From: Pseudomonas phage NCVTCBPA170
Reading direction: 5' to 3' (one strand)
Sequence record: PV733668.1
DNA length: 64,000 bases
The notes under the pieces are model-generated. The model did no database searches. It was not told where the DNA came from and saw only the letters and a list, made by a program, of their open reading frames with translations. Positions 40,100-43,060 of this stretch are shown piece by piece (position 1 is the first letter of the stretch; each line of letters opens with the position of its first letter). Position numbers and translations under genes: made by a program.

Positions 40100-40519
40100 A
40101 TGGATAAGGTTTACATCGACGCAACATTTGACATTGAATCGGTGATCGCCGAGCCGGATGGGATAGTGTACTCGGACTACCACAAAGGGACTCCCTTAGG
40201 AGTAACCGCCACTCTCCGTGTGAACATGCCCAAACGGGATTCCAACAGGGTGTGGAAGACTCTCTTGGCCATGGATTTCTCGGCCCTGGAGCAGCGTGTA
40301 TTGGCAGCCATGCTGACTTCTGGAGGGTTGGTTATGCTTCTAGAGGATGGTAAGCTGTACGATCAGAACGGTGCCCAGGTAGAGCACCCCCGTGATAAGC
40401 TCATGGTGATCTTCGATGAGTGGGATAAGCTTTCCAAGAATCAGCGCCACCTTCGCGCCAAGAAGCACCGTACAGCACCCAAGAACCCCCAACTGCGAAA
40501 GAATCACTGGAACCGTTGA
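40100..40519 (+). CDS. hypothetical protein, 139 aa
   Basis: GGAGG RBS; ORF. Confidence 0.45.
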   Translation: MDKVYIDATFDIESVIAEPDGIVYSDYHKGTPLGVTATLRVNMPKRDSNRVWKTLLAMDFSALEQRVLAAMLTSGGLVMLLEDGKLYDQNGAQVEHPRDKLMVIFDEWDKLSKNQRHLRAKKHRTAPKNPQLRKNHWNR

Positions 40520-40542
40520 CACGGGAGTATAAAGGAGGAACA

Positions 40543-40752
40543 ATGAAGAACAGTACAGCAGCCCTCGGACTGGCATGTGCTCTGGCAACAATGATCACCC
40601 TACCATCCACGTATCCTGCTACGCTGAACAGCCGGTGGGATGTTGAAATCCCGGCCCAGGAGGAATCGACCGACAAGAAGAAGGCCAAGAAAAAGAAATT
40701 GAAGGCCCTTCAAGCTGAGGCTGTTAAGTCGCGTAAGGGAGGTAAGAAGTGA
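40543..40752 (+). CDS. small secreted/lipoprotein-like protein with a Lys-rich tail
   Basis: AAAGGAGG RBS; signal-like N-terminus ALGLACALA. Confidence 0.4.
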   Translation: MKNSTAALGLACALATMITLPSTYPATLNSRWDVEIPAQEESTDKKKAKKKKLKALQAEAVKSRKGGKK

Positions 40753-40785
40753 CCGAACCCATTAATCCGCCTCCGACAGTGGAGT

Positions 40786-41127
40786 ATGTTCGAACGGTCC
40801 GGGAGGCCCCTCCACTGCCTCCCCCCAGGACCTGCTGTGAGGTGGATGAAAGAAGGGACGACTTTGGATGAACTAGCGAGGGATTTGAAATTGGAATATA
40901 CGAAAGCGTGGGGTGTCGTGGTTTTAGCAGTTATCTTGGCACTCACCATGATGTTTTCCTTCCTGGGAATGATGCAGCGCCTGGAAGAGAACCAAGTTAA
41001 GCTCGAATCTGAGCAGGTGCAAGCCGTTAAAGAGGCAATCGCCAAATGTGAGGCGGGGGCTGGAGTGTTGGAAGTGACTCTGAAAGGAGACCGTCTGACT
41101 TCCTACACTTGCAAGTTCTCGAAGTAG
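40786..41127 (+). CDS. membrane protein, 113 aa (start may be 40846)
   Basis: ORF with a TMD. Confidence 0.35.
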   Translation: MFERSGRPLHCLPPGPAVRWMKEGTTLDELARDLKLEYTKAWGVVVLAVILALTMMFSFLGMMQRLEENQVKLESEQVQAVKEAIAKCEAGAGVLEVTLKGDRLTSYTCKFSK

Positions 41128-41132
41128 CTGCT

Positions 41133-41354
41133 ATGATTCCAGACCTCAAAGAGGCTTACCAGAAAGCCTCCAAGAGGACTAAACTGCTGATACTGGCGGC
41201 CCTGGTTAGCCAAGCAGCGATAGCCCTCTACGAACAAGACCGCAGGTCCTTTAAAGACCCCTACCTGTCTAGGATGTGTTTCGAACAACAGGGGGTTTTT
41301 GAAGTCACCCGGGTAGGTCCGATCACCAACATCTATTGCAAGAGAGGAGAGTAA
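41133..41354 (+). CDS. hypothetical small protein
   Basis: ORF. Confidence 0.3.
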   Translation: MIPDLKEAYQKASKRTKLLILAALVSQAAIALYEQDRRSFKDPYLSRMCFEQQGVFEVTRVGPITNIYCKRGE

Positions 41355-41557
41355 AGATGGTAATTTTCACCAAAGAACAGAATAACTTGGCCAATAGCCT
41401 GAAGGTAGCTATCAACGCCCAACACGTCACTGCTCTGGAAATCCTCGCATCGAAGAAAGAAATCCGGGTAGGCCTCACAAGTGGGGTTATTATCCTGATC
41501 TTCCTCACCGCCCAGGATGCTAAACAAGCCTTCGAAACTCTGACTTTCGCCTGCTAA
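41336..41557 (+). CDS. hypothetical small protein, 73 aa
   Basis: AGGAGAG RBS. Confidence 0.4.
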   Translation: MQERRVKMVIFTKEQNNLANSLKVAINAQHVTALEILASKKEIRVGLTSGVIILIFLTAQDAKQAFETLTFAC

Positions 41558-41567
41558 GGAGGTACCA

Positions 41568-41834
41568 ATGGAACTCGACATCCGCCAACCCAACCCGCCC
41601 TTCGATACCATCCGGATTGCGGATATCAGCGACGATATGAGCAATGTGTGCCTGGTCACGTGCCAAGAGGCCCCTCCCGGTGCTGTTCGTCTGGTTCACC
41701 CTGATGAAGGCCAGGCTACATTCGGAATGCCAGGAGATATCGTGCATCAAGAGCTTCTGGTGGAGGACAAGATGCACGCCAACTTCCTTATCATGGCGCT
41801 GGAGAAGGCTATCGAGTTGGGGTGGCTGAAATGA
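41568..41834 (+). CDS. hypothetical protein, 88 aa
   Basis: GGAGG RBS. Confidence 0.4.
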   Translation: MELDIRQPNPPFDTIRIADISDDMSNVCLVTCQEAPPGAVRLVHPDEGQATFGMPGDIVHQELLVEDKMHANFLIMALEKAIELGWLK

Positions 41835-42199
41835 TGGGACTGCCGATCTACCTGAGCGTCAGCGTCTACCACCTCGCAGGCCTTATCGCAATCGCCTGCC
41901 TGGTCTACTGGGGTATCATCAAGATGACCCGGAGCGAGGTTGAACGAGGAAACATGACCAAGCCGCAAGCGTCCTGGTGGCGTAAGTGGTACCCCGTGTG
42001 GGCTATCGTCTGCATCTCGGTCTCGTGCCTGGGCTTCGGCTACAAGGTGGAAGAGATTCGCCCGGTGGGCACGTTCCAATCCCATCCCACAACTGTTGAC
42101 ACAGGGGAGAAGAAGGAGTATCGTGCATACCGTGAAAAGGCAGAAGAGCGGTTCAACAAGACCCTCGAAGCCATCGAAACGAAAAACAACCTGAAGTAA
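41822..42199 (+). CDS. membrane protein with two TMDs, 125 aa
   Basis: ORF with two hydrophobic helices. Confidence 0.4.
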   Translation: MAEMMGLPIYLSVSVYHLAGLIAIACLVYWGIIKMTRSEVERGNMTKPQASWWRKWYPVWAIVCISVSCLGFGYKVEEIRPVGTFQSHPTTVDTGEKKEYRAYREKAEERFNKTLEAIETKNNLK

Positions 42200-42208
42200 G
42201 GAGGAAAG

Positions 42209-43060
42209 ATGTTCAAGAACCTGATGCGTGGCGTCGCCATTGTCCTGGCCCTGGCCCTGGTTGCAGGCTGCTCTGATGTGGTACCGCCTGCCATGAAAGG
42301 CAAGCACCTCAGCGGTAGTGGCTACAGCACCAACGTCCTCGAACCTGGCCGTCACTGGCGCGCCCCGTGGACTCGTATCGTGATGCTGGATGTCTCCACC
42401 CAGACCGTCGCCGAGCCCCTGAAAGTGAAGATGGCCGACAATCTGGACCTGACGTTCGTGGTACGCTTCCGTACTCGAATCGCAGGCACCGAGCGAACCA
42501 TCAATGCCATGTTCAACGATATCCGGGTGGAGAATGACCGAGTAACTCTCCAGCAGGTGTATGGTGTCTACGGTAAGGATGTGGTACAACGTGTCAGCCG
42601 CTCGGTCCTGGGCAAGTACCGCACCCAGGATGTGGCAGCCAACTTCGACAAGATCAACCAAGCCCTACACTCCCAACTGGTAGCAGCAATGGAGGGTAGC
42701 CCTTTGGAGGTGAGCAACATCACCCTGGCTGACCTGCAATACCCGGAAGTGATCACGAAGGCTATCGAAGCTCAGAACGAGCGAGAGCTGGCTATCAAGA
42801 CCGCTGAGAACGAACAGGCTATCGAGATGGTCAAGCGTGAGAACGCCCTGAAACTGGCCGAGGCGGATCGTGAAATCGAACTGACCAAAGCACGTACTCT
42901 GGCTGACCAGAACGAAATCACGAACCGTGGCCTGTCGGAGCGGCTGCTCCAGTACAAGGCGCTGGAAGTCCAGATGGAAATGACCAAGAATTCCTCTGCG
43001 GTGTTCGTACCCTACGAGGCTCTGACCAGCCCCGGCTTCCAGAACCGCGTCTACAAGTGA
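42209..43060 (+). CDS. SPFH/band-7 (prohibitin/HflK-like) lipoprotein
   Basis: AGGAGG RBS; signal peptide with lipobox LVAGCS; SPFH-like core; C-terminal coiled coil EAQNERELAIKTAENEQAIEMVKRE. Confidence 0.55.
   Translation: MFKNLMRGVAIVLALALVAGCSDVVPPAMKGKHLSGSGYSTNVLEPGRHWRAPWTRIVMLDVSTQTVAEPLKVKMADNLDLTFVVRFRTRIAGTERTINAMFNDIRVENDRVTLQQVYGVYGKDVVQRVSRSVLGKYRTQDVAANFDKINQALHSQLVAAMEGSPLEVSNITLADLQYPEVITKAIEAQNERELAIKTAENEQAIEMVKRENALKLAEADREIELTKARTLADQNEITNRGLSERLLQYKALEVQMEMTKNSSAVFVPYEALTSPGFQNRVYK

Follow-up and report, generated by a model that had tools for sequence, protein, structure and literature searches.

The 64,000-nucleotide stretch of the genome of Pseudomonas phage NCVTCBPA170 analysed here (record PV733668.1; hereafter the window) carries a block of small genes at positions 40100-43060, downstream of the lysis cassette, that ends with two adjacent genes for putative membrane-associated proteins. 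The first, gp40 (41831-42199, with an alternative start at 41834), encodes a predicted hairpin of two transmembrane (TM) segments, and the second, gp41 (42209-43060), encodes an SPFH/band-7 lipoprotein of 283 amino acids. Judged by sequence comparison, the gp40-gp41 pair is the one evolutionarily coherent and portable unit of the block. We propose, with a probability of roughly 0.55, that gp41 forms a lipid-anchored SPFH ring of the prohibitin or HflKC type which is organized together with gp40 on a periplasmic membrane face. An initial annotation, made from the letters of the sequence, had described the block as a set of small membrane proteins with an SPFH lipoprotein at its end and had interpreted it as a possible functional module. 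Its physical observation is confirmed and its interpretation is partly supported.

The window is derived from a Nankokuvirus, a PAK_P3/KPP10-like myophage of Pseudomonas aeruginosa. Over 40000-43200 the sequence shares 98.1% identity with Pseudomonas phage CHA_P1 and 97.1% with PAK_P3, and other complete matches show 91-96%. Forty phage records, all from Pseudomonas, are at least 90% identical over this region, and the matching records that were examined are all assigned to the genus Nankokuvirus (KPP10-like P. aeruginosa myophages, ~88 kb). Genes are named here after PAK_P3, in which gp34-gp41 are the counterpart of 40100-43060. The block consists, in order, of a terminator, a sigma-70 promoter, the seven small open reading frames (ORFs) gp34-gp40, gp41 and a second terminator, all on the + strand. 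In comparison with phage Ab03 the small ORFs had pN/pS ratios of 0.07-0.59 and gp41 one of 0.02, with synonymous exceeding non-synonymous change throughout. Since the ratio is below 1 for each of them, gp34-gp41 are real genes and not chance ORFs.

Fold and lipid anchor of gp41

The gp41 sequence matched the Pfam Band_7 model (PF01145) over residues 37-202 with 71.2 bits (cutoff 23.6; E = 1.5e-19), and the same domain was present in all 120 best-scoring gp41 relatives. Among the ten ORFs scanned between 40100 and 43802 it was the only one with a Band_7 match. An AlphaFold2 model based on an alignment with 41 relatives had a mean predicted local distance difference test (pLDDT) score of 84.6 and displayed a beta-rich SPFH domain, a 62-residue helix (180-241), a further helix (244-260) and a short C-terminal segment. 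Foldseek comparison with the PDB gave full-length matches over 260-300 columns with E-values of 3e-14 to 1e-8 and sequence identities of 14-20%; these included human prohibitin, E. coli HflK/C, stomatin, QmcA (in the QmcA-YbbJ complex), erlin and flotillin, the first four of these ranking highest. A profile of the gp41 family could be aligned with a solved prohibitin chain over residues 21-254 of 256, including the conserved 'NAVFVPYE' segment, with the conserved gp41 'VFVPYE' strand aligned with the prohibitin C-terminus. The prohibitin/HflK-like SPFH domain and coiled coil that had been proposed initially were thus borne out by the Pfam match, the model and the structure search, and neither these nor the profile placed gp41 in a family other than SPFH.

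Membrane features were called with a Kyte-Doolittle scan (neither TMHMM nor SignalP). Residues 1-20 of gp41 form a predicted signal peptide (MFKNLMRGVAIVLALALVAGC) with a basic n-region and a hydrophobic h-region, and the lipobox VAGC puts the predicted lipidation site, Cys21, at 42269-42271. A lipobox occurs in 117 of the 120 best-scoring relatives, in which the cysteine is found at position 16-23. The earlier designation of gp41 as a lipoprotein is therefore well supported at the sequence level. In the relatives only ~4-6 residues separate the cysteine from the conserved PPA strand. Because this spacing is so short, the SPFH domain must lie right against the membrane in which the lipid is anchored.

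gp40 and its association with gp41

The gp40 protein contains two TM segments connected by a basic loop, followed by a tail of ~50 residues that ends in a helix. A two-TM protein, of ~100-116 amino acids, is also encoded immediately before the SPFH gene in phages PA1C, pf16 and Miami. A further 23 SPFH loci were taken from viral contigs. A hidden Markov model built from 16 upstream partners, with the window left out, recovered gp40 of the window with E = 1.6e-9; among the 520 window ORFs the second-best had E = 0.23, and the other TM proteins of the window had E > 1. With a larger partner profile, each of the 24 loci outside the Nankokuviruses that have an SPFH protein of 53% identity or more showed a same-strand partner immediately before the SPFH gene; at one locus a stop codon splits the partner ORF. 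The same profile gave no match in three distant SPFH loci. In many loci the partner ORF overlaps the SPFH start by 1-4 nucleotides. A search with the single gp40 sequence reached only Nankokuviruses, so that a profile was needed to find the wider family. At 50% identity this family forms 87 clusters in a set of 1.84 billion representative proteins, and almost all of them have 84-122 amino acids.

The evolutionary distances of SPFH proteins and partners were strongly correlated (Mantel r = 0.865, p = 2e-4), with the partner diverging at roughly double the rate (mean identity 31% vs 60% for the SPFH protein). According to these comparisons gp40 is a member of a phage-only family of ~100-120 residues whose gene directly precedes the SPFH gene in phage lineages unrelated to one another and has diverged in parallel with it. 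The initial suggestion that the SPFH lipoprotein has small membrane partners is thus supported for gp40, found at 24 of 24 loci, and not for gp34-gp39, which have no homologs around the SPFH gene at 27 further loci.

Members of the gp40 family start with an N-terminal 'IYLAWS' motif, followed by TM1, the basic loop, TM2, a conserved stretch immediately after TM2 ('AFDVG.RQ.DL.RS.F[ND]'), a variable linker and a C-terminal helix. On average the loop has a net charge of +3.6, and both ends of the protein are neutral, a pattern that predicts an N-out, loop-in, C-out topology. This topology would place the conserved stretch and the tail in the periplasm, alongside the SPFH domain. In the AlphaFold2 model of gp40, helices cover residues 11-38, 43-70 and 93-119. 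The hairpin has a pLDDT of ~87, whereas residues 71-92 are disordered and the last helix is of low confidence.

No Pfam model was found for the gp40 family when 46 members were scanned. NfeD (PF01957), the partner of cellular SPFH proteins, was considered and rejected: it is absent from the 25 Pfam families most frequently matched by these 46 members at E ≤ 1. A profile search of PDB chains gave four weak matches (E = 0.24-8.5) with neither NfeD nor YbbJ among them, and the model of a TM hairpin, disordered linker and helix has no beta-barrel or OB-fold.

The more distant SPFH lipoproteins of KVP40, AhSzq-1, PT11-V22 and ACP17 are followed directly downstream by a two-TM protein of 116-130 amino acids (positions 3431-3790 of locus L034, 3316-3705 of L035, 3311-3661 of L036 and 3393-3785 of L037, respectively). 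The downstream proteins of PT11-V22 and ACP17 have a common C-terminal 'FDEMV.YK' motif. For the neighbor of the KVP40 SPFH gene, the FxsA assignment (PF04186) given in the 2003 record was not reproduced by current Pfam at E ≤ 0.01 and was discarded.

Distribution and natural loss

Relatives of gp41 of ~280-290 amino acids and 51-64% identity are numerous in metagenomes, on contigs of up to 318 kb, and all named relatives in that search were from phages (PA1C, Psa21, D6 and RVTF4). A tblastn search of 50,697 phage records with gp41 matched 140 records, and all those listed are at least 83 kb in length. The matches comprised Nankokuviruses, ~300-kb Pseudomonas jumbo phages, the Erwinia phages Joad and RisingSun, Klebsiella phage Miami and P. 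putida phage pf16, as well as, at 22-30% identity, KVP40-like and T5-like phages of Vibrio and Aeromonas and phages of Alteromonas, Acidovorax and Xanthomonas. Comparison of the protein among Pseudomonas, Erwinia and Klebsiella phages gave identities of 54-64%. The sister genus Pakpunavirus probably lacks the gene, since Nankokuviruses, jumbo phages, pf16 and a small number of other phages make up the 57 Pseudomonas records. A motif scan of 185,579 bacterial species, with one genome per species, detected no close relative of gp41, and distant cellular relatives would escape such a scan. The structure search also showed that proteins with the SPFH fold are encoded by many further phages and by giant viruses of eukaryotes.

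Phage vB_PaeM_PAO1_Ab17 has no equivalent of window positions 40945-44297 (3.35 kb), by which it has lost gp37-gp43 and kept gp34-35. The junction shows a 4-nucleotide microhomology (positions 6944-6947 of the Ab17 locus, L032, corresponding to 40941-40944 and 44298-44301 of the window) and creates a fusion (ORF91, 252 amino acids) of the gp36 N-terminus with 230-odd C-terminal residues of an RNA ligase. Because the junction falls inside the ligase gene, the RNA ligase is also truncated in this viable phage. Ab17 was isolated and propagated on PAO1 and was reported to have a 3,271-bp deletion affecting seven hypothetical ORFs that are otherwise perfectly conserved (Essoh et al. 2015, PMC4482731). 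Since Ab17 lacks the pair and grows on PAO1, plaque growth on a laboratory strain does not depend on gp40-gp41. Related phages that lack the whole block and show no phenotype had been named beforehand as a finding that would count against a functional module. The loss of gp37-gp43 from a viable phage makes these genes dispensable and does not demonstrate that they are functionless. It fits an accessory role, and in view of the pN/pS of 0.02 for gp41 it is no argument for the absence of a function.

The surroundings of the SPFH gene show some recurrent features. An RNA ligase homolog lies within 3-4 kb of it in 7 of 27 other-phage loci (L004, L006, L015, L019, L020, L021 and L024) and also in AhSzq-1 (L035); the counterpart in the window is at 43795-45015. 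Genes for NAD salvage (PRPP synthetase, NAMPT, NadR, PnuC) follow the SPFH gene in pf16, Miami and PT11-V22. The gp40-gp41 pair seems to reside in accessory islands that hold genes of the counter-defense type.

Transcription of the block

In PAK_P3, gp34, gp37 and gp38 are over-expressed early despite their location in the 'structural region' (Chevallereau et al. 2016, PMC4933390). The replicate-1 read counts at 3.5 min in S5 Table of that study, divided here by gene length, gave 4 reads per nucleotide for gp33, followed by 117 for gp34, the highest value within the block, 42 for gp35, 57 for gp36, 75 for gp37 and 64 for gp38. Read density was 8 for gp39, 4.6 for gp40 and 76 for gp41, and further downstream 14 for gp42, 12 for gp43, 4 for gp44 and 69 for gp45. 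The lysis genes gp28-gp33 are late according to the same table (log2 fold change +3.3 to +5.8), while gp41 shows no differential expression (log2 fold change -0.5), its reads being plentiful at 3.5 min as well as at 13 min. Read density thus decreases ~8-fold from gp38 to gp39, increases 16-fold from gp40 to gp41 and decreases ~5-fold after gp41, which suggests that gp34-38 and gp41 belong to at least two separate transcription units.

The promoter that precedes gp34 is of the sigma-70 type (TTGACA-17-TACAGT, 40043-40071) and equals 'putative promoter_02' of PAK_P3. Its -35 hexamer is identical in five Nankokuviruses and its -10 hexamer is TACAGT in four of them and TAAAGT in Ab03. The new promoter noticed before the block in the initial annotation is therefore real, as are the roughly eight ORFs behind it, but the statement that this one promoter drives them all is too simple because read density is uneven. 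A second sequence with a sigma-70 consensus match, TTGACA-17-TATCGT, is located in the 3' end of gp40 (42096-42124). Its hexamers are invariant in five phages whereas spacer and flanks differ in Ab03. Since the 16-fold jump in reads coincides with this match, it is a candidate internal promoter for gp41.

Downstream of gp41 an intrinsic terminator with a 9-bp GC-rich stem and a T-tract is present at 43067-43096 (hairpin 43067-43087). Its stem shows a compensatory change from C-G to T-A in Ab03, and an annotated terminator is also found 3' of the homologous gene in pf16 and Miami. The terminator fits the fall in reads from 76 to 14 per nucleotide, and the hairpin, the compensatory change and the read drop together support the earlier proposal that a terminator ends the block. 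No terminator-like hairpin that could account for the ~8-fold drop was present at the gp38/gp39 junction (41557-41570); this drop could be due to processing, decay or an unrecognized terminator. Further downstream, a near-consensus promoter within the RNA ligase gene (TTGCCA-17-TATAAT, 44876-44904) is the same as 'putative promoter_03' of PAK_P3 and precedes the early-expressed set gp45-gp48, of which gp45 and gp46 are early.

Small open reading frames and lysis cassette

Six small ORFs precede the pair. The gp34 homolog (40100-40519, 139 amino acids) is soluble, is early in PAK_P3 (log2 fold change -2.06) and has a pN/pS of 0.11. No family could be assigned to it, and a weak PADLOC match to PDC-S55 (E = 0.0065) was treated as noise. 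The gp35 homolog (40543-40752, 69 amino acids) has an N-terminal hydrophobic stretch and a lysine-rich tail. The gp36 homolog (40749-41127) has one strong TM segment, and its frame is broken in the window. Relative to PAK_P3, Epa18, CHA_P1 and KPP10 there is an extra C in the C-run at 40822-40827, which breaks the frame starting at GTG-40749, while the C-terminal part with the TM segment remains open from ATG 40786. This one-nucleotide insertion may reflect either a genuine frameshift or a sequencing error in the homopolymer. The homologs of gp37 (41133-41354, 73 amino acids) and gp38 (41357-41557, 66 amino acids) are early and have a borderline hydrophobic segment, and the gp39 homolog (41568-41834, 88 amino acids) is acidic and soluble.

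Several ORFs with TM segments or signal peptides had been predicted in the block. In the Kyte-Doolittle scan such features were clear for gp36, gp40 and gp41 and borderline, as 15-residue hydrophobic stretches, for gp35, gp37 and gp38; no membrane segment was found in gp34 and gp39. The PADLOC models had no match for gp35-gp43, and an NCBIfam scan of the block proteins gave only noise. The ORFs gp34-gp39 were found only in Nankokuviruses, and neither these nor gp42 and gp43 had a BLASTP homolog within 3-4 kb of the SPFH gene in the 27 other-phage loci.

The lysis cassette upstream was identified by PHROG matches and consists of an endolysin (38016-38579), a holin-like ORF (38560-38826), Rz (38823-39239) and the o-spanin Rz1 (39115-39408). 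This late cassette is closed by an intrinsic terminator with a 13-bp stem and a U-run at 39990-40025 (ΔG -24.5 kcal/mol, z -3.8), where the PAK_P3 record marks a terminator from RNA-seq; the terminator after the lysis cassette had been recognized correctly in the initial annotation. The o-spanin ORF begins with a signal peptide and lipobox (MRLRAFLGMWLLSVSLLGLWSC), and its match to the spanin PHROG starts at residue 10. In the PAK_P3 record the o-spanin start is 81 nucleotides later, at window position 39196, with loss of the lipobox. The public start is probably mis-annotated.

Proposed mechanism and alternatives

We envisage the block as the start of the accessory-gene region of Nankokuviruses, which the host RNA polymerase would transcribe early or throughout infection. 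The gp41 protein would be exported and lipidated at Cys21, its SPFH domain, with just 3-5 residues between the lipid and the first strand, would lie flat on a periplasmic membrane leaflet, and oligomerization would produce a ring or cage like that of prohibitin or HflKC. The gp40 protein would reside in the inner membrane in the N-out, loop-in, C-out orientation, and its conserved stretch after TM2 or its C-terminal helix would bind the SPFH assembly. In doing so gp40 may anchor or nucleate the ring and replace NfeD or the own TM anchor of cellular SPFH systems. From early infection until lysis the assembly may fence off a patch of the envelope or a conserved host membrane client, for which an FtsH-type protease is the best guess by analogy. 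The strong conservation across hosts points to a conserved target, either the membrane itself or an FtsH-like protein, and not to a receptor. The benefit would be conditional and non-essential and could consist of envelope protection, protease control or counter-defense.

Several observations weigh against such a ring. The oligomeric state, the lipidation and the localization of gp41 as well as its contact with gp40 are all inferred. The sequence identity of gp41 to HflK/C is just 15-20%. The gp40 model is of moderate quality, with an overall pLDDT of 69.6 and values below 50 for residues 79-92, and its ~16-fold lower read density in PAK_P3 compared with gp41 is odd for stoichiometric partners. 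The two-TM proteins downstream of the distant SPFH genes have no detectable homology to the gp40 family (2-4 bits) and resemble it in architecture only. Furthermore, lipoprotein sorting is governed by the +2 rule in E. coli and the +3/+4 rule in P. aeruginosa, and the residue at +2 after the cysteine is Ser or Gly in 111 of 117 gp41 relatives, which predicts sorting to the outer membrane and away from an inner-membrane partner. The geometry of gp40, whose conserved stretch would be at the inner-membrane surface, favors the inner membrane for the lipid anchor, whereas the sorting rules favor the outer membrane.

A broader proposal is that gp40-gp41 represents a hitherto undescribed, phage-restricted two-component SPFH system, in which a lipid-anchored periplasmic cage and a non-NfeD hairpin partner are horizontally exchanged and serve to shield or condition the envelope. 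We regard this as a tentative idea that is less likely than not. Such a system would be one of large virulent phages of Gram-negative bacteria, with the caging of FtsH or the blunting of membrane-targeting abortive-infection effectors as possible roles. If it holds, the repeated RNA ligase and NAD-salvage neighbors would mean that the pair is part of counter-defense islands.

The ring could also be more specific. As a sharper form of the mechanism proposed above, gp41 may mimic HflK/C and cage FtsH or compete for it, thereby stabilizing phage or host membrane proteins. The periplasm-facing orientation and the overall fold are as in HflK/C, a conserved host target would explain the strong conservation across hosts, and phages are known to inhibit host proteases, as lambda CIII does with FtsH and T4 PinA with Lon. 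However, no NCBIfam model for HflK or HflC matched gp41 at E ≤ 0.01, the fold similarity is no better than to prohibitin or stomatin, and there is a single SPFH gene and not a heteropair. Mimicry of HflK/C acting on FtsH is plausible by analogy, and we consider it unlikely in this particular form.

Superinfection exclusion, which was one of the roles initially suggested, would require gp41 to block a receptor or DNA entry in the way of the early lipoproteins of the T5 Llp/Cor type, which would keep infected cells and cell debris from taking up further phage. Such a role would suit an early and sustained, abundantly transcribed phage lipoprotein that is dispensable in Ab17 and that default sorting would place in the outer membrane. 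It fits poorly with the 54-64% identity seen among Pseudomonas, Erwinia and Klebsiella phages with their differing tails and receptors, and with a pN/pS of 0.02, whereas receptor blockers are usually small, fast-evolving and phage-specific. The gp41 fold is that of a scaffold or cage former, and a protein that masks a receptor would not be expected to have a conserved partner in the inner membrane. Receptor-type exclusion is therefore rather improbable.

We see still less reason to treat gp34-gp41 as one co-functioning membrane module of eight genes, as the initial annotation did. The genes have a common orientation, tight packing, a single annotated promoter and several hydrophobic products, but only gp40 co-occurs with the SPFH gene outside the Nankokuviruses (24/24), gp34-gp39 being absent from the surroundings of the SPFH gene in 27 other loci. 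Moreover, gp34 and gp39 are soluble, reads fall ~8-fold after gp38 and rise 16-fold at gp41, and Ab17 retains gp34-35 and loses the rest. The least probable proposal, a role in lysis timing, also raised in the initial annotation, or in envelope disruption, in which the pair regulates holin or spanins or acts as a second spanin-like couple, can draw on the position of the pair ~2 kb downstream of the lysis cassette in Nankokuviruses and on a gene-pair layout like that of Rz/Rz1, but is contradicted by the strong terminator between cassette and block, the opposite temporal class (lysis genes late, gp34/37/38 early, gp41 flat), the presence of true spanins at 38823-39408, the PHROG assignments of gp41 (phrog_200) and gp40 (phrog_13586), neither of them a spanin PHROG, the dissimilarity of the SPFH fold to o-spanins and the location of the pair away from lysis genes in seven other lineages (PA1C, pf16, Miami, KVP40, AhSzq-1, PT11-V22 and ACP17).

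Relation to known systems and implications

The gp40-gp41 pair resembles SPFH-NfeD operons, such as those for E. coli QmcA-YbbJ (PDB 8z5g), Pyrococcus PH1511-PH1510 and B. subtilis flotillin/NfeD, in having a co-directional and co-inherited adjacent gene for a small membrane protein, and the fold of gp41 matches that of QmcA with a Foldseek E-value of 3e-11. In many cellular SPFH operons the partner gene is located upstream, as it is with gp40. Unlike the SPFH-NfeD systems, gp40 has no NfeD domain or OB-fold, gp41 is predicted to be lipid-anchored instead of TM-anchored and to face the periplasm, and the family is seen only in phages. With HflK/HflC of the E. coli FtsH complex, gp41 shares the periplasm-facing SPFH domain, the long wall helix and the C-terminal closing strand (Foldseek E 1e-13 to 1e-9), but it differs by being a single gene product with a lipobox in place of an N-terminal TM helix, and by the low identity mentioned above.

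Other viral SPFH proteins, including those of the T4-like phages 44RR, Aeh1 and RB43, the jumbo phages RisingSun and Joad, and giant viruses, belong to the same superfamily, and the phage proteins to the same lipoprotein subfamily. T5 Llp and Cor are likewise phage-encoded, early and dispensable lipoproteins, whereas gp41 is much larger, has a scaffold fold, is conserved across hosts, has an inner-membrane partner and shows no sequence relation to them. Rz/Rz1 also combines adjoining genes for an inner-membrane protein and a lipoprotein; in contrast, gp41 has 283 residues and the SPFH fold, is expressed early and lies apart from the lysis genes in other phages.

Phage ORFs with SPFH/band-7 domains have been listed since 2006 (44RR, Aeh1, RB43), and papers up to 2026 call the role of viral SPFH proteins unclear. 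The SPFH gene is already annotated publicly, with gp41 labeled 'lipoprotein' or 'SPFH domain / band 7 family protein', so the initial view that none of the ORFs had a recognizable annotation needs correction. In the searchable literature we found no tested function of a phage SPFH protein, and no description of a conserved hairpin partner or of the natural deletion as bearing on function. The conserved gp40-gp41 pairing thus appears to be undescribed.

These results narrow the problem from eight genes to two and at the same time widen the distribution to many large virulent phages. With a defined partner family, the comparison of the Ab17 deletion with Ab03 and the PAK_P3 transcriptomes, the question can be approached experimentally. 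PAK_P3-type phages are candidates for therapy and a prophage-borne SPFH protein of Pasteurella was reported to be a TLR2 agonist; more speculatively, an abundant lipoprotein in phage lysates could act as a TLR2 agonist as well. If the pair does cage a host protease or guard the membrane from defense effectors, it would represent a new class of host-takeover or counter-defense device.

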